A stretch of 64,000 nucleotides of DNA from Promethearchaeota archaeon (lineage in GTDB: Archaea; Asgardarchaeota; Lokiarchaeia; Sigyniarchaeales; SOKP01), in NCBI GenBank assembly GCA_048939995.1, contig JBHLOY010000003.1, forward strand, positions 96,001-160,000. Reading direction: 5' to 3'. Every line of letters begins with the position of its first letter. Positions within the stretch are counted from its first letter, which is position 1. Under the pieces are notes generated by a model. That model was not told the origin of the DNA, ran no database searches, and worked only from the letters and a program-made list of their open reading frames with translations. Below are positions 591 to 59,484 of this stretch, piece by piece. A program made the translations under genes and the position numbers.

Positions 591-2255
591 TTATTTTAAT
601 TTCCCATAAATATCTTTATGTCCATTATATTCTTTTAAGACTTTCTTGCCTTCTTTATGAGATAAGGATAACGTAATTTCGCTATTACGGCTTAAAGAGC
701 CTGCAAATATATGTCGATTATCAGCATAAACTATTATATTTCTACTAGCATATATAGGATCTGCCCTTAAAATTAACTTATTTCTTTGGACTTCTATATC
801 CAGATTAATCTTTTCATTATATGAATCTTTTTCATCAGTAAACTCTTCCAATCGTCTATATCTTTTTGAACTTACTGGTTTAATGGGATTAACAACAATA
901 TCTTGTCCAAAGGAATAAATTTCATACTCTAATTGTTTAGTCTTATAATCTCTTACTTCCACAACAGGTCTAGCAAGATCTTTATCTCTAAAACCATGTG
1001 GTACTTTTACAGTCATTTTTATAGCTAAAACTCTTGAAATATCTCCATCTTTTATAAATATTATAGTATCTATTATTGAAGGGAGCATACCAAGTTCTAT
1101 TCTCCCAATAAATCTTTGAATTGCGTCAATTGCGGATGAAGAATGCACAACACCAACCATACCTACTCCAGATAATCGAAAATCAGCATAAACTTGAAAA
1201 TCTTTTGTAGTTCTTACTTCATCAAATATGGTGAAATCAGGTCTCACTAATAAAAGTATATCTGCCGAATTTTCAAGGCTTCCTTCTAATTTAGTATATT
1301 GAGTAATTTCAGGAGTAACTTGTAAATCCCTTACACTCTCAAGTGTTTTCACGATTTTATTTTGTTGAGCATAGAAATTTGCTAGCGCTGCTGAAAAAGT
1401 ACTTTTACCAGCACCAGGTGAACCAGCAACTAGAATTCCTTCTGCCTTTTCCAGCCGTCTTCGTAACCTTGAGTCAATAGAATAATCTGATAGTGTCAAA
1501 TTAACAAGGGGACGTGTCGCAGTTATTTCAATATCATTTGAAAAAGGAGGACGAGTTATCACGATTCTAAACTCTCGTAGTTGGGCTACAACTGCACCAT
1601 ATTTTTCAATTTCAATGAATGAGTGAGTATCTTCGCGAGTAAATTCCACAATTTCCATCGCGATTTCTTCAAGCTGATCTTTAGATATTGATTCCTCTCT
1701 TACTATCTCTAAATACCAATTACCCGGACTACCCTTTTTAGCATAAGGAGGCAATTCTTGCTTTAAATGGACACTCATAGTATTTCCATCAAAAAATTTA
1801 ATTAATTGGAGTGAAGATGAATCAATTTTTGTCGGAGGGATTTTTTCCTTCACGGGCATTACTTCAATTCCCTCAAAAACTCCTACATCACCCTGAATTC
1901 TGTCCGAAGTGATTAAAATAGCCTTATTTTCGCGAGCAGATTCCCTAATTAAAGCATCTAATTCACCTCCAGGAGCCATTTTAATTTCTTCCCGAGTTGG
2001 CCTTTTGCCTATTAAATGTAATTGTATTTTATTTTCATTGTGGTATTGTCTAAGCCTTTTTAAAACATTCAAACCTAAAAATCCGATTTCCTTTTGAACA
2101 TTTGTTCGGTATTCAACTTCAGCTACAACAATATTAGGGATAAAGATTTCTGGATATTCACCTAATTCTCCATCTTCAATTAAATCCAAAATAAGTCCAT
2201 TAAAAATAACTGAAGTGTCACAGACAAACTTATCTGGCATATTCTTCATCATCAA
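591..2255 (-). CDS. PIN-domain/P-loop ATPase (PINA / MJ1533 family)
   Basis: N-terminal PIN domain (DTSVI..AEVE..LDALI..TSD), Walker A GSPGAGKST, DEVR, GVVHSSS and GRIELGMLP. Confidence 0.9.
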   Translation of the reverse strand: MMMKNMPDKFVCDTSVIFNGLILDLIEDGELGEYPEIFIPNIVVAEVEYRTNVQKEIGFLGLNVLKRLRQYHNENKIQLHLIGKRPTREEIKMAPGGELDALIRESARENKAILITSDRIQGDVGVFEGIEVMPVKEKIPPTKIDSSSLQLIKFFDGNTMSVHLKQELPPYAKKGSPGNWYLEIVREESISKDQLEEIAMEIVEFTREDTHSFIEIEKYGAVVAQLREFRIVITRPPFSNDIEITATRPLVNLTLSDYSIDSRLRRRLEKAEGILVAGSPGAGKSTFSAALANFYAQQNKIVKTLESVRDLQVTPEITQYTKLEGSLENSADILLLVRPDFTIFDEVRTTKDFQVYADFRLSGVGMVGVVHSSSAIDAIQRFIGRIELGMLPSIIDTIIFIKDGDISRVLAIKMTVKVPHGFRDKDLARPVVEVRDYKTKQLEYEIYSFGQDIVVNPIKPVSSKRYRRLEEFTDEKDSYNEKINLDIEVQRNKLILRADPIYASRNIIVYADNRHIFAGSLSRNSEITLSLSHKEGKKVLKEYNGHKDIYGKLK

Positions 2256-2847
2256 TATCTAATTTACTAATTAACTCAAACTTATTGACACTATAATAGA
2301 TTGGTTTGGATAGTCTATCAACTGTAGCAACGATTAAATCTTTTCTAGAGCTCATAGCAACTCGAGACATTTTGTCTAAATCCTTTAATTCGATTGGATA
2401 TCCTTCAAATACCGGATATATTAAATATTTTGCAGCATCTTCCTTTATATCTGCCCCTCTTTTGTAAACACGAAAATCAATCCCATTCCCATATCCTGCC
2501 CTAACAATATATCCCCTTTTTCGAAGATCCATATAAATAATATACTTTTGCCATAATCTGGAATCAAATTGAGTGAAATAAATCAATAAATTTTCAAAAT
2601 CATATACTTGATTATTTTTATTATTTTCTCTCCATAATAAAATTCTATTTCTTTCACATAAGAGGAGGACTTCGATTGGTTCTAAAACTAATATTTTATC
2701 ACCCTCTTCTCTCTCTTCTAAAGTTCCAATATAAGATCCATTGTAAAACTCTTCTATGGCTTCTTCATCAGAAATAATTACTTTATCTTTCTTGATAATT
2801 GCCTCGAACTGTGTTTTCTCTGCCTTTTCACTAGCTTTTTCTGTCAT
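2230..2847 (-). CDS. endA: tRNA-splicing endonuclease subunit, probably the structural type (catalytic His absent)
   Basis: YMDLRKRGYIV, G.DFRVYKRGA and RVAMSSRKDLIVATVD are EndA motifs. The expected H-S is replaced by A-A. Confidence 0.88.
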   Translation of the reverse strand: MTEKASEKAEKTQFEAIIKKDKVIISDEEAIEEFYNGSYIGTLEEREEGDKILVLEPIEVLLLCERNRILLWRENNKNNQVYDFENLLIYFTQFDSRLWQKYIIYMDLRKRGYIVRAGYGNGIDFRVYKRGADIKEDAAKYLIYPVFEGYPIELKDLDKMSRVAMSSRKDLIVATVDRLSKPIYYSVNKFELISKLDIDDEEYAR

Positions 2848-4548: not shown

Positions 4549-4803
4549 TTATAATCCGCCCGCTTGGGTGGCCATAACAGTTATTACATCCTTTTTTGGA
4601 TGAATTCCTACTTTTGCGAATTTAAGATCATCTGGAAGTACCTTGCCTTTAAAAATGAATTGTATTGCTAAAATTGGGTTCAATTTGTATTCTCTCTGAA
4701 CAGTTTTTTTAATATCTGCAATAGATTGGTTTGGATCAACTTCAATTAACTTTATAGCCTGATCTGGTGGTACTCCAGTAAGTCTAAACCGATATTGAGT
4801 CAT
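4549..4803 (-). CDS. Ubiquitin-like (beta-grasp) protein with C-terminal GG-L
   Basis: 84 aa. IEVDPNQSIADIK and FIFKGKVL resemble ubiquitin LEVEPSDTIENVK and LIFAGKQL. Ends QAGGL. Confidence 0.85.
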   Translation of the reverse strand: MTQYRFRLTGVPPDQAIKLIEVDPNQSIADIKKTVQREYKLNPILAIQFIFKGKVLPDDLKFAKVGIHPKKDVITVMATQAGGL

Positions 4804-29145: not shown

Positions 29146-30417
29146 TTAATTTATATTAATATCATACTTTCTAAATACTTTCTCAAGTGCTTCACTTGCT
29201 AATTCTCTCAATACATTTCCCAGAGGAGCTAAAACCTCATCTTTCGAGGTTCGACGATTTTTACTAATTCGACCCTCCTTTACTTCAAAACTATTTTGTG
29301 CCCAGCTATATTCGTCATTGAATGTAAACCAGACATCCTTATAGGCATTTTCCTGACCTCCATCTCTAGCTAATGGCTTCTCCTCAACTGGAACATCAGG
29401 ATCCTGCAAATAGCACCAATCTAGCACAACCCACTCGAGCTTTCTTGGAGATTCCGGCCGATCTGCCAAATATATACAATAAGAATGACCACCTAATTCT
29501 GAATCAGATGGGGCAACAACAGGGTCAGCCATAACCTGAGCAGCACATACTTTTACTCTCCATGATGGAATTCCAGCATTGATTAATAAGCTTGCTATTA
29601 AAATAGAGCCATCTTCACAATCTCCAATTTCAGATTGAATAGTTTCAAATGGAAATTGCCAATATTCCGGACATTCAGAGGTAATATCATCATAAGTATA
29701 TTTAAGAAATTCACTTACAAATTTCTGACATACCCAAGCAGTTTCATTAGGCGTATTTCTTCTCAATTGAAGCTTATATATGACATGTTGGAGAATAGAA
29801 TCATTCTTTTTAATAAATGACTTAACATCAACATCAATTTCTTTCTTATAATGCTCTCCCCTTAAGGCTCTCCCCGTATAAATAATGTGTGCTCTCTCCC
29901 ATTTACTGTTCCAATAATCTTGACCAAATTCACCATAATTTTTTTCTTCAAACGGAATGACTTCAAGAGGTACATTGGGGGTAATAATTTCTGGTGTATC
30001 CTTTTCTTTTTCTTTACTTTTACTTTGTCTAGAGAATGCTTTCGCTTTACTTATCCAACTTTCTATTTCTTTTTGGGAAGGAATTTTCGTTAAAAGATTT
30101 GAATTTTCTTTTTTTAATTGCTTAAGTTTTTCTAATAAACTTTTGGCATTTCTTCCAGCAAACTCTTTAACAGAATCCACACCACTTAAATTTAGAGCGT
30201 TTGCTATTTTAGGATTAATTCCTTCAATACGCATGAGATCAGCATGTTCTTGCCAGGTATCTAACAAGTTTACCGTAACTCCGATTTTTCGAGCCAATTT
30301 TCTAATTTGATTTGGACTAAGTGGTATAAGGTCTTCCACAGTCATAATACCTTCTTTTTTTAGAAGCTTTGCATGTTTTTCTTCTAAAGAAATAATTTCA
30401 ACTAAATTCAATATCAT
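29146..30417 (-). CDS. DUF4332 (HhH) plus transglutaminase-like cysteine-protease domain
   Basis: ADLMRIEGI..GVDSVKE (DUF4332). GDCEDG, GHSY and LDW give a Cys-His-Asp triad. Confidence 0.82.
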   Translation of the reverse strand: MILNLVEIISLEEKHAKLLKKEGIMTVEDLIPLSPNQIRKLARKIGVTVNLLDTWQEHADLMRIEGINPKIANALNLSGVDSVKEFAGRNAKSLLEKLKQLKKENSNLLTKIPSQKEIESWISKAKAFSRQSKSKEKEKDTPEIITPNVPLEVIPFEEKNYGEFGQDYWNSKWERAHIIYTGRALRGEHYKKEIDVDVKSFIKKNDSILQHVIYKLQLRRNTPNETAWVCQKFVSEFLKYTYDDITSECPEYWQFPFETIQSEIGDCEDGSILIASLLINAGIPSWRVKVCAAQVMADPVVAPSDSELGGHSYCIYLADRPESPRKLEWVVLDWCYLQDPDVPVEEKPLARDGGQENAYKDVWFTFNDEYSWAQNSFEVKEGRISKNRRTSKDEVLAPLGNVLRELASEALEKVFRKYDININ

Positions 30418-30720: not shown

Positions 30721-30869
30721 GGCGGGATTACCGAGATTACTCAAGAGCTTCTCTTACATCGGGAATCTGGTCAATGGTCGCGTCTAAAAATGGGTCAAGA
30801 CCGATTATAGGTGCTGGACTTAAGATCCAGTGGCAAAGGCCTTCGGGAGTTCAAATCTCCCTCCCGCCA
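30721..30869 (+). tRNA. tRNA-Leu(UAA) with two non-canonical D-arm introns (30736-30765 and 30775-30808)
   Basis: Acceptor stem GGCGGGA/TCCCGCC-A, anticodon arm CTGGA-CTTAAGA-TCCAG, long variable arm and T-arm GGGAG-TTCAAAT-CTCCC. Removing the two inserts gives an 85-nt cloverleaf. Confidence 0.9.
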
Positions 30870-30995: not shown

Positions 30996-31373
30996 TTGCC
31001 AGTTGGGATTCTTATTATTCGATGGGATAATGAAATTGGACCAATAAATGAAGGTTTTTATCCGGAAAATTTGAAAATAACTAATAATCTCCTCACACAA
31101 GTCTACTCATCACATAGATATCAGAGTTTAAAACCGGGATTTGCAAGTATCGCTCTTAAAAATAATAAGGTTGTTTCTTTTTTTTCAGGAGTTGGTACAG
31201 ATCATATTAGTGTTGAAAATTATGTTGTTGCACTCTTACTCAGAAGAGATGAGAAACCCAACAAATACCGGGAAATTTTGAAAACTATAGCTGCTGAAAT
31301 CCTAGATAAAATACCTGATGGGAAATTCAAAAAAGTTTTACCTGACTTGTATAAAGATTTAGCTAAAATATAA
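30996..31373 (+). CDS. Stand-alone uDENN/longin-like protein
   Basis: ILIIRWDNEIGP...YP N-terminal motif and a longin-like beta/alpha pattern. TTG start after GAGG. Confidence 0.6.
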   Translation: MPVGILIIRWDNEIGPINEGFYPENLKITNNLLTQVYSSHRYQSLKPGFASIALKNNKVVSFFSGVGTDHISVENYVVALLLRRDEKPNKYREILKTIAAEILDKIPDGKFKKVLPDLYKDLAKI

Positions 31374-31382
31374 AATAAAATA

Positions 31383-32420
31383 TTAACTTATTTGAGCTTT
31401 TTTTAATGAAATCTTTCCATTTTCATCTAATTCAATAAGGTCTACGTCCTTTAGCTTTTGCACTAACTTTCTAACTAGTACAATTGGAGAACCAAGGGCA
31501 TTTCTTAGATCTTCTATACTCATAGAACCAACTTTTTCAATTATTAAAAAGGATTTGAACTGAGCTTCCTGCTCCATTAAATCAGTGAGTTTATCGAAAT
31601 AAACTATCTTTTTCATATTTTCATTTTTAAATGTATCAACTTCGTCAACTCTTTCTTGTAATTGCCTAATTAATGTTTCTGCATTTCTCTTTTCATCGCG
31701 TAATTGTTCTACTTTATTAATTAGTTCTTCATATTTTTGGTGAATCTCTTCAAATCGAGATTTTACATCTTTTGCTTCAGAGGTCGCTTCTGTTGATACT
31801 AACTTAAAATCTAAAAGAAACTTATCCAATTCTGCAATTTTTGTTGTTAATTCTTTTTTTTCTTCGAAATGCTCTTTTTTCAATTTTTCTATCTCATTCT
31901 TCCACTTTTGATCCATATCAGACAAAAGTTTTACTTGTTCATCTTGTAATTTATCTGCAAAAGCTTGAATTTCTTGAACCATATTTTCAAGGTTTTTAAC
32001 TGTTTCATCTTTTAATATTAATTCAGAACTCTTCTCTGCTAATTCGGCCTTTAGATTTCCTATTCTTTCAAAAGCTTCTTCTAGTTTTCTATGAGTAGGT
32101 ATATTTTGCTTTTTAGAAAAATCTAATTCTCTCTGGGCTTCTAAAGCTGTACCTTTTGCTAATTCTAATTCCCTTTCTTTCTCATTTATTATAGCCCTCT
32201 GAGTTCCAATTAATTCTTTTAATTCTAAAACATCATCTGGAATATCATACATTTTAGAAATCTTTGCTTTTTGATCTTCTATTAAATTATCTTGATCAAT
32301 GATAACTCTCTTTTGCTTTTCAACTAGCTCAGTCAATCTATCAATTTTTGATTGTAAGGATGCAATTTCTTTCTCGCTCGATTCGATTTCATCTATCATA
32401 TTTCTCAAATCTTTAGGCAT
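31383..32420 (-). CDS. Long coiled-coil protein with C-terminal winged helix
   Basis: About 280 aa of E/K-rich heptads, then MSIEDLRNALG..LVQKL...DLIE. Confidence 0.7.
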   Translation of the reverse strand: MPKDLRNMIDEIESSEKEIASLQSKIDRLTELVEKQKRVIIDQDNLIEDQKAKISKMYDIPDDVLELKELIGTQRAIINEKERELELAKGTALEAQRELDFSKKQNIPTHRKLEEAFERIGNLKAELAEKSSELILKDETVKNLENMVQEIQAFADKLQDEQVKLLSDMDQKWKNEIEKLKKEHFEEKKELTTKIAELDKFLLDFKLVSTEATSEAKDVKSRFEEIHQKYEELINKVEQLRDEKRNAETLIRQLQERVDEVDTFKNENMKKIVYFDKLTDLMEQEAQFKSFLIIEKVGSMSIEDLRNALGSPIVLVRKLVQKLKDVDLIELDENGKISLKKAQIS

Positions 32421-57102: not shown

Positions 57103-59292
57103 TTACCATGAAAGCCCTTTATTAAAGCGTAGATTACTTATTATTGAATTAGCTTCATGATCCGGAACTTCCATAAAAGAATAAAATTCATTTTGCCAGA
57201 AAGCTCTTCCAGAAGTAGCAGATCTAATATCTTCAGCGAATTTTATTGAATTCCTGACAGGAATAAGGATTTCAATTATCGCTTGATATTCCTTATCCTG
57301 GTTTATATTTTTAATTTTAGCAGAATATTTTGTAAGTAAAGATAAAACGCTCTTTATATAATCTGGAGGAAGTTGGATAATGCTATGGTATATTGGCTCA
57401 AGTAATATCAATTCTGCTTCATTTAGAGCTTTCTTTATACCCTCGTATAAAAGAGTTGATAATTCAGTGAATGCATTCTCTTCATTTAAATTATTTATTG
57501 TTAGATTTTCTATTAGAATTTTAAGTTCAGTAAGTTTTTCTCCGCAAAGTGGCCCATTCAACTGAATTTTTTCAAAACTTTCTATAATAGTATCTTTGAA
57601 AAAAGTACTAAAAGTATCTGCTCCATGATAAATTAATAGATTTTGGTCATCATCAAATTTCCAAAAATTTTTTATTTCATCCTCCTTCAAATTTGTTTTT
57701 TCTAATAAAACATCCTTGAGAGCATCCAATGGCTTAAAGGAACCAATATTTATTGATTGTAAAAATCGAGCAGTTTTAGGATCTAGTCTCTCAATTTTAA
57801 TTGATAATGTATTCTGGTTGTTTGGTGAATTTACAGTGATAAAAGAGGAATGATATCTACAAGATTCTTTAAAAACCGCTCTTGGTTCTGAAATCGATAC
57901 ATTCACACCTCTTTTTTCAATTTCTTTTGCTGTAACTTCAAGGTGCAATGGCCCCATACCCGATAATAAGAATTCACCATTTTCCTCATTTATTTCAAAC
58001 CTTAAGTTTGGATCCTCAATTAACAAGATTTCAATTAACTCTCTCATCTTATCTAAATTTCTAAGGTATTCCGGTTCGATGGATACGGTCACTACGGGGG
58101 TTGTTACGTATTTTACTTCCTCAAATGGAATCATTTCTTCTTTATATTTGCTTTCAACAATGGTTTCGCCACTTCTAATCTTTTTTAATCCCTCTATTGC
58201 TACAATATTTCCAACAAGAACCCGATCAACTTGTTCTCTTCTCTGTCCCATGAAAATAGCTGTTCTTTGGATAGTAGCATAATCGTTTTCCCTTAAAAGA
58301 AAAATTTCTTCTTTTTTTGAACAGATACCAGAGAAAATTCTTCCAGTTGCTACTAAATTTTGCTTATCAACTTGTACCTTACTTAAACAAATGACTAACG
58401 GACCATTTGGATCACAATTCTTCATAGCTCTTCCTATTTCTACATTAATATCACCGTCCCAGATTTTATCTATCCGATAACTCTGTGCATCTATAGGATT
58501 AGGAAGATGATCCACAACCATTTCTAATATTGCTCTGTGAATTGGAAAGTAGCTTGCTAAATCTGAATATGTTTTTTTAGAATAAGTCTCCTTTTTATAT
58601 CTAGCTCTTATGTCATTAAATTTAAGATCGCTTTCCTCTAACATTTTTAGAGTAAACCCCCATTTATGGAGAGCAGATCCAAAAGCAACATTTCCGCTAG
58701 CTGGAGATACTTGCCATTCTTTTTTAAATTCTTTGTCTGCAAATCTTTCAATAAGTGTATTAAAGTCATTTATTATTCGTGTATACTTCTTTCGTATCTG
58801 TTCGTCATTTAATTTCAATTCTCGAATAAGACGATCTACTTTATTAATAAATAGAATAGGCTTAACACACTCTTGTAGTGCTTGTTTAATCACTGTTTCT
58901 GATTGGCTAATAATTTCTTCGACAGCATCAACTACGACCACAACACCGTCTACAAGTCTTAAGGCTCTTGTTACTTTACCACTAAAATCTAAATGTCCAG
59001 GGGTATCTACTAAATTAATTAAAAAAGGTTTGCGTTTTTCTAATGTTTTTTCATAATATAATGAAATATTAGCTGATTTCATTGTAATTCCACGTTGTTG
59101 CTCTTCTTCTAAATAATCAAGTGCTCTGGCTTCTCCCGCTAATTCTGGTGACAAAAAACCTGCTTCACTTAATAATGAGTCAGATAAGGTAGTTTTTCCA
59201 TGATCAATGTGACCTACTAATCCAAAATTTCTAATATTTTCAGTCTGTTCCATCATTCGTAATATATCTGTAATTTCCTTTCTACGTGGCAT
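57103..59292 (-). CDS. Elongation factor 2 paralog (aEF-2p), diphthamide motif absent
   Basis: GHIDHGKTT, RGIT, DTPGH, NKVD, GMGPLHLE and LLEP motifs. No HRG in domain IV and no adjacent rps7/rps12. Confidence 0.88.
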   Translation of the reverse strand: MPRRKEITDILRMMEQTENIRNFGLVGHIDHGKTTLSDSLLSEAGFLSPELAGEARALDYLEEEQQRGITMKSANISLYYEKTLEKRKPFLINLVDTPGHLDFSGKVTRALRLVDGVVVVVDAVEEIISQSETVIKQALQECVKPILFINKVDRLIRELKLNDEQIRKKYTRIINDFNTLIERFADKEFKKEWQVSPASGNVAFGSALHKWGFTLKMLEESDLKFNDIRARYKKETYSKKTYSDLASYFPIHRAILEMVVDHLPNPIDAQSYRIDKIWDGDINVEIGRAMKNCDPNGPLVICLSKVQVDKQNLVATGRIFSGICSKKEEIFLLRENDYATIQRTAIFMGQRREQVDRVLVGNIVAIEGLKKIRSGETIVESKYKEEMIPFEEVKYVTTPVVTVSIEPEYLRNLDKMRELIEILLIEDPNLRFEINEENGEFLLSGMGPLHLEVTAKEIEKRGVNVSISEPRAVFKESCRYHSSFITVNSPNNQNTLSIKIERLDPKTARFLQSINIGSFKPLDALKDVLLEKTNLKEDEIKNFWKFDDDQNLLIYHGADTFSTFFKDTIIESFEKIQLNGPLCGEKLTELKILIENLTINNLNEENAFTELSTLLYEGIKKALNEAELILLEPIYHSIIQLPPDYIKSVLSLLTKYSAKIKNINQDKEYQAIIEILIPVRNSIKFAEDIRSATSGRAFWQNEFYSFMEVPDHEANSIISNLRFNKGLSW

Positions 59293-59381: not shown

Positions 59382-59484
59382 GCGGGAAATGATAATTCTC
59401 ATAACTCAAGATCATCTTCATGAAATTGATAATTAATTATCAATTTTCAGTTGGGTCAGAGTTTTCAACGAAATCATTTCCCGC
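59382..59484. ncRNA. Candidate structured RNA: long rod hairpin with a K-turn on the minus strand
   Basis: Perfect 12-bp closing stem GCGGGAAATGAT/ATCATTTCCCGC, inner AACTC/GAGTT stem and an apical palindrome. Confidence 0.5.

Follow-up and report, generated by a model that had tools for sequence, protein, structure and literature searches.

Genes for transfer RNAs (tRNAs) that carry several introns, among them D-arm introns that annotation had missed, have already been published for Asgard archaea (PMC11291895; bioRxiv 10.64898/2026.10.13.758758). In Pyrococcus, guide RNAs are known for nucleotide (nt) 34 of tRNA-Leu(CAA) (sR47), tRNA-Leu(UAA), tRNA-Met (sR49) and tRNA-Trp (PMC7994747, PMC5558902, PMC2584109). 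The second arm of the Pyrobaculum tRNA guides is described as targetless (PMC7994747). Intron bases pair with the euryarchaeal guide (sR49/sR-tMet) that directs 2ʹ-O-methylation of C34 (Cm34) in the intron-containing pre-tRNA-Met (PMC2584109, file S5), and extra base-pairing of yeast small nucleolar RNAs such as snR13 raises methylation (PMC5389607). Here we compare with these systems a tRNA-Leu(UAA) gene and a box C/D guide RNA gene that lie ~29 kb apart in one 64,000-nt stretch of DNA (the window) from a Lokiarchaeia-type Asgard archaeon. We propose, with a probability of roughly 0.6 and from sequence comparison, that the guide docks on the second intron of the tRNA precursor for 2ʹ-O-methylation of the wobble base (nt 34) before splicing.

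The tRNA gene has two introns in its D arm, which as such is ordinary for Asgard archaea. An earlier note on this DNA treated the two introns as equals and did not see the guide-binding site in intron 2, which is the point of interest. The parts of the gene are as follows.

30721 to 30735, plus strand: exon 1, nt 1-15 (15 nt); ACCG at 30730-30733 is a strand of the central helix of intron 1
30736 to 30765, plus strand: intron 1, at position 15/16, 30 nt, relaxed bulge-helix-bulge (BHB), with CGGG at 30760-30763; optional and variable in relatives
30766 to 30774, plus strand: exon 2, 9 nt, D loop 16-21; GGTC at 30769-30772 is a strand of the central helix of intron 2
30775 to 30808, plus strand: intron 2, at position 21/22, 34 nt; intron helix 30776-30779/30799-30802, central helix partner 30803-30806
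30791 to 30800, plus strand: predicted docking motif UGGGUCA(A)GA in the loop of intron 2, complement of the Dʹ arm of the guide RNA
30809 to 30869, plus strand: exon 3, 61 nt; anticodon TAA at 30821-30823, with U34 at 30821; nt 30-40 pair with the D arm of the guide RNA

The guide RNA and the motif in intron 2

A genome scan for the complement of the motif gave one reverse-strand match followed by CUGA. This match is the Dʹ arm of an intergenic element with the following parts.

59382 to 59484, minus strand: box C/D guide RNA gene between purN and an EF-2-like gene, with an 11-bp terminal stem
59460 to 59451, minus strand: Dʹ arm, UCUGACCCAA, followed by box Dʹ CUGA at 59450-59447
59421 to 59415, minus strand: box Cʹ AUGAAGA; an inner hairpin lies between Dʹ and Cʹ
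59413 to 59403, minus strand: D arm, GAUCUUGAGUU, followed by box D AUGA at 59402-59399

The boxes run C, Dʹ, Cʹ, D inside the terminal stem, as in a C/D guide, and the fold of the element has a z-score of -4.3. No Rfam family scores above threshold for it. Across 29 family members neither arm varies, while the inner hairpin does; homologues from other, distant Asgard families, recognized with a covariance model and patterns, have canonical C, Dʹ, Cʹ and D boxes. The gene starts 18 nt after the purN stop codon, on the same strand, and a 729-aa EF-2-like GTPase gene (57103-59292, minus strand) lies directly downstream. Stem-flanked elements with UCUGGCCC and GAU(C/U)UUGAGU and odd boxes occur at L528 (G267) and L542 (G262); they are possibly second or degraded guide copies. 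An exactly U34-matching arm followed by CUGA at C11:351479 of G000 (L279) was set aside as a second guide: it has no box C, overlaps a stop codon and is probably a chance match (~0.05 expected by chance, by a hand estimate).

Elongator tRNA-Met, here as well as in relatives, shares the core of the motif in its 37/38 intron; none of the other tRNA genes recovered from this genome has it. Here the elongator tRNA-Met gene (C28:237433-237538, minus strand, L278) has a 37/38 intron with a 10-nt perfect complement of the Dʹ arm; the duplex of the same arm with intron 2 of tRNA-Leu(UAA) consists of seven pairs, a bulge and two further pairs. At the level of the family, none of 107 loci lacked intron 2; most of these loci had been retrieved with an exon-only pattern, and they hold 63 distinct inserts of 16-82 nt. 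The core GGGU(C/U)A occurs in 62 of the 63 distinct 21/22 inserts, against 2% after shuffling. Its columns are 94-100% conserved, as against 32-62% for the upstream columns of the loop.

Among 49 Asgard genomes that encode the guide together with one or more of the tRNAs, guides with UCU-GA-CCC go with introns reading GGG-UC-A (20 Leu-UAA, 26 Met), those with UCU-AG-CCC with GGG-CU-A (4 Leu-UAA, 3 Met), and those with UCU-GG-CCC with GGG-CC-A (3 Leu-UAA, 1 Met). There are two G-U wobble cases and zero cross-mismatches between guide arm and motif. The introns predicted the GG form of the guide, which then turned up in the three genomes concerned. Matching tends to reach one base further, to the position in front of GGG, where this family has U with A and two other families have G with C. 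Genomes G038 and G051 both contain the motif, and G038 has the guide too.

The site is not tied to one intron. Two families have the motif in a 37/38 intron of tRNA-Leu(UAA) rather than at 21/22, and Atabeyarchaeia have a bulged form of it in a variable-arm insert. Hence, the site follows the tRNA and not the intron. In tRNA-Leu(CAA), which often has a 21/22 intron of its own, we found the motif in 1 of 10 genomes and, in a separate count, in none of 15 distinct genes. Because site and guide changed together across Asgard archaea, intron 2 with its motif probably has a job.

An improbable alternative is that this is an ordinary two-intron Asgard tRNA whose motif serves intron folding or was inherited or copied, and that the Dʹ arm has only the tRNA-Met intron or some other RNA as its partner. 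The motif does repeat the GGUCAA of the exon, it shares its last bases with the intron helix, the Dʹ match in this genome is short, and G-rich stretches of the variable loop and T stem of other tRNAs pair equally well with the Dʹ arm by energy. However, the GGGUCA core sits in the loop of the intron 2 hairpin, and its changes to GGGCUA or GGGCCA coincide exactly with those of the guide, with the exon remaining GGUCAA; the motif also occurs in non-homologous introns of tRNA-Leu(UAA).

Three further explanations of the motif or the arm were rejected. As targets of the Dʹ arm, the variable loops of many tRNAs give similar energies but show no covariation. Pairing of the intron motif in cis with the anticodon stem is lost when the stem changes. 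Intron 2 is not a C/D guide in its own right, of the pre-tRNA-Trp type: it is 34 nt long and without boxes, and the guide is a separate gene.

Nor did we find the docking system in four genomes from outside Asgard archaea. In these Thermoproteota/Brockarchaeota-type genomes (L558, L560, L561 and L562) a guide combines an identical D arm with a Dʹ arm reading UCUCUGGCC (UCUGGCC), and the 14-15-nt 21/22 intron of their tRNA-Leu(UAA) (GGGACUAGA) does not match that arm. In these four genomes we found no match in a tRNA-Met intron and no other target for the Dʹ arm.

Proposed wobble methylation and other outcomes

The D arm pairs with nt 30-40 of tRNA-Leu, which places the fifth base before box D on nt 34. 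The tRNA-Leu(UAA) gene described here has no 37/38 intron, and the D arm pairs with exon sequence only. Among the 39 tRNA genes found in the assembly, the D-arm duplex with tRNA-Leu(UAA) is the best, and the duplex energies summed over both arms are best for tRNA-Met and tRNA-Leu(UAA), in first and second place (-27.3 and -25.9 kcal/mol). The D arm matches tRNA-Leu(CAA) perfectly, with a G-C pair at nt 34; its match to pre-tRNA-Met has two mismatches, with a G-C pair at the target nucleotide.

We propose the following course of events. A single precursor would be transcribed and, as in established archaeal splicing, both introns would be cut by an (alpha-beta)2 endonuclease and the exons joined by RtcB. 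Intron 2 may be kept because its loop carries the docking site. Before splicing, the C/D ribonucleoprotein (RNP) would hold the precursor at two points, the intron motif by the Dʹ arm and the anticodon loop by the D arm, and so place nt 34 for 2ʹ-O-methylation of its ribose by fibrillarin. Pairing with the intron would make up for the imperfect anticodon match, and splicing would follow methylation. One guide could in this way serve three tRNAs: tRNA-Leu(CAA) through its perfect match to the D arm, and tRNA-Leu(UAA) and elongator tRNA-Met with help from the intron site. We favor, with slightly less confidence than the docking on intron 2 itself, this wider proposal, in which a single Asgard guide is responsible for wobble methylation in three tRNAs and the intron motif is a movable docking site. 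If true, wobble methylation of tRNA-Leu(UAA) and tRNA-Met would depend on an intron, and modification would be coupled to the order of splicing. It would also explain why introns with the motif are retained while neighboring introns come and go.

Several observations weigh against this proposal. The guide G faces U34 in tRNA-Leu(UAA), so that the pair at the target is G-U and not Watson-Crick, and a G-U pair at the target often weakens guided methylation. This lowers the claim of 2ʹ-O-methylation at U34 (Um34), not the membership of the element among C/D guides. In the family to which our guide belongs, boxes Dʹ and Cʹ are canonical and boxes C and D are degenerate. By energy alone, the Dʹ duplex with intron 2 ranks only 14th among the 39 genes. 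The covariation probably represents two or three independent changes, each in two tRNAs, and not 49 events, because kin lineages are not independent. There are also exceptions. Three Atabeyarchaeia lack the exact motif, and some Asgard tRNA-Leu(UAA) genes lack the motif or the intron. L567 (G174) is the sole tRNA-Leu(CAA) with the motif; in that gene G31 makes the D-arm match imperfect as well.

Guide and intron 2 might also pair with an outcome for tRNA-Leu(UAA) other than Um34: the Dʹ arm could methylate a G of the intron, or the RNP could be a chaperone that resolves competing folds and times splicing. The intron-binding arm adjoins the canonical box pair (Dʹ CUGA, Cʹ AUGAAGA), whereas C and D are the degenerate boxes of this family, and the G-U pair at U34 favors an outcome other than Um34. 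The BHB of intron 2 lies 3.3-4.5 kcal/mol above the ensemble, with competing folds. We nonetheless consider such outcomes unlikely. In the Dʹ arm the fifth-nucleotide register varies, with 2-4 nt between the core of the arm and box Dʹ, but the D arm holds nt 34 in register throughout. Furthermore, the set of tRNAs that carry the motif is the known wobble-methylation set.

The tRNA gene, its introns and its host

The locus is a real two-intron tRNA-Leu(UAA) gene. Removal of 30736-30765 and 30775-30808, the two introns assigned in the earlier note, reduces the 149-nt gene to an 85-nt RNA with all stems, and ARAGORN calls the joined sequence tRNA-Leu(taa). As the earlier note expected of non-canonical introns, default scanners miss the gene: neither ARAGORN nor Rfam detects it unspliced. 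The identical 149 nt occur in three near-identical assemblies, and the two-intron gene is therefore not an assembly slip; in these assemblies (L034:2716-2895, L035 and L037) a spurious 59-aa open reading frame (ORF) is called over the tRNA gene.

It is very improbable that this is a defective tRNA gene and that a working tRNA-Leu(UAA) is encoded elsewhere. In favor of this, neither BHB is part of the minimum-energy fold, and the assembly is without some tRNA genes: a motif-free census by profile alignment allowing long inserts recovered 39 tRNA genes but none in the assembly for Leu(CAA), Leu(UAG), Trp, initiator Met or Asn. However, the cloverleaf is perfect after splicing, and more than 100 loci have the same architecture with conserved exons. 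The same census found this gene as the sole tRNA-Leu(UAA) of the assembly, so that the intact second copy that would have undermined the earlier note did not appear. The other two Leu(taa) calls made by ARAGORN (C37:5601-5706 and C25:1-106) are intron-containing tRNA-Pro genes that were miscalled. The tRNA is needed for TTA, whose abundance had also been pointed out: in long ORFs it makes up 49% of Leu codons and 4.9% of all codons, and it is the main Leu codon of the genome.

The two introns differ in their splice motifs. Intron 2, described earlier as a clear BHB, has the strict form as a pattern, with a 4-bp central helix (GGUC/GAUU, two of the four pairs being G-U), two 3-nt bulges (AA^U and AU^A) and a 4-bp flanking intron helix (GGUC/GACC). 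It is not, however, the predicted ground state. At 37 C, the energy penalty for imposing the BHB motifs is 2.0 kcal/mol for one and 4.5 kcal/mol for the other (intron 2 alone), and it is 4.8 kcal/mol for both together. Both motifs can thus form within one molecule. Therefore, no order of splicing is forced, and we rejected a fixed or obligatory order. Intron 1 is of the relaxed class only, as had been noted, since its central helix has three of four pairs and no adjacent flanking helix; in a relative with a CCCG exon all four pairs form.

The doubt that had been raised over the borders of intron 1 does not stand. The intron is absent in 62 distinct relatives, which read ACCGAG-TCTGGTCAA without interruption and so fix its borders, and 17 of the 79 distinct genes have an insert of 27-33 nt at exactly the same point. 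These inserts all end in CGG(G/A/T) plus 2 nt, an end that is kept because the central helix needs it, and their interiors vary. Intron 1 is probably a dispensable insert, repeatedly gained or lost.

Additional introns occur around intron 2. In eight Leu-UAA genes (L017, L019, L075, L084, L115, L117, L184 and L185) the 5ʹ splice site of intron 2 bears a further intron, which has a central-helix partner to itself (GGCC/GGCU plus 2 nt) and, given this position, would need to be removed before intron 2. Of the 63 intron 2 inserts, about 25 are at least 50 nt long, and L254 and L271 seem to hold an extra intron at the 3ʹ site. A division of intron 2 into two nested or sliding introns by way of the inner GGUCAA was rejected; in relatives with short introns it would leave a remnant of 6-10 nt that cannot be cut.

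The earlier note placed the gene in a Thermoproteales-like frame. That frame does not fit. The host is an Asgard archaeon: homologues of its endonuclease bear Promethearchaeota/Lokiarchaeota names, and so do most of the records that contain the nearest tRNA genes. Inserts interrupt 31 of the 39 tRNA genes found (8 have none). Among the other genes are a two-intron tRNA-Sec (C23, ending at 113627) and a tRNA-Ile(GAU) with an acceptor-stem intron (C5:44903). One subunit of the splicing endonuclease is encoded in the window.

2230 to 2847, minus strand: EndA structural (beta-type) subunit, a tRNA splicing endonuclease paralogue in which the catalytic His is missing

The catalytic subunit is on another contig (L031:1168-1773), and the endonuclease is of the (alpha-beta)2 type. 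The catalytic subunit aligns to PDB 3p1z_B (E 5e-37) and 3ajv_B (E 1e-35) and has the loop Lys (SKPR) and the Tyr/His/Lys positions. This broad-specificity loop is reported throughout TACK and Asgard archaea and has been linked to cleavage of relaxed motifs (PMC5829648). RtcB (E 7e-168) and fibrillarin (E 1e-77) are also present.

The gene for the structural EndA subunit overlaps the start of a gene that looks by sequence like a PIN-domain/ATPase protein (591-2255), within 591-2847 on the minus strand. An 84-aa protein encoded at 4549-4803 (minus strand) has a ubiquitin-like look and ends in AGGL. The tRNA gene itself lies between a gene for a DUF4332/HHH protein with a weak match to DUF553 (29146-30417, minus strand) and two genes for coiled-coil-like proteins of 125 aa (30996-31373, plus strand) and 345 aa (31383-32420, minus strand), neither of which has a match in Pfam.

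Comparison with known systems

Introns described in Asgard archaea (PMC11291895; bioRxiv 10.64898/2026.10.13.758758) and Thermoproteales are like those reported here in their BHB type, their D-arm sites, their being missed by annotators and the two-subunit EndA that goes with them. However, the Asgard intron papers assign no function to intron sequences, whereas here one intron carries a conserved, covarying site. The second of these papers (bioRxiv 10.64898/2026.10.13.758758) gives intron positions and no role, and the words “guide”, “methylation” and “sRNA” are absent from it. We found no second guide arm that docks inside a tRNA intron, including a D-loop intron, in the searchable literature.

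As for the guide, those of Pyrococcus are likewise free-standing C/D RNAs whose D arm lies on the anticodon loop with nt 34 as the fifth nucleotide, and the set of targets is the same. In Pyrococcus there is one guide per tRNA; here one guide fits three. The second arm of the Pyrobaculum guides is targetless, whereas the second (Dʹ) arm here pairs with an intron. Methylation by sR49/sR-tMet requires the unspliced precursor because the guide pairs with intron bases, a dependence that we propose for our system too. In sR49/sR-tMet, however, it is the methylating D arm that reaches across the exon-intron junction, and the Dʹ arm varies. We see no such junction-spanning arm at 37/38; instead, the Dʹ arm is the conserved intron binder, and its site lies away from the junction, even in a D-loop intron. 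The intron of the euryarchaeal pre-tRNA-Trp (PMC4090602) also has a role in wobble 2ʹ-O-methylation, but that intron is itself the guide, and intron 2 would be a docking site. With yeast snR13, a second pairing strengthens methylation, as we propose here, but it does so on ribosomal RNA and is kept in the mature RNA.

What is the significance of a guide that docks on an intron? The persistence of tRNA introns is an open question, and a covarying docking site would give one non-canonical class of them a role. It would also provide a guide whose second arm is not an orphan, and would predict which introns cannot be lost. The tRNA concerned reads the commonest Leu codon of its genome, in the lineage nearest to eukaryotes. 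In eukaryotes, wobble methylation of tRNA-Met is still guide-directed: human SNORD97/SCARNA97 (PMC6601510) guides Cm34 of tRNA-Met, and we liken it to the guide described here by target, not by homology.
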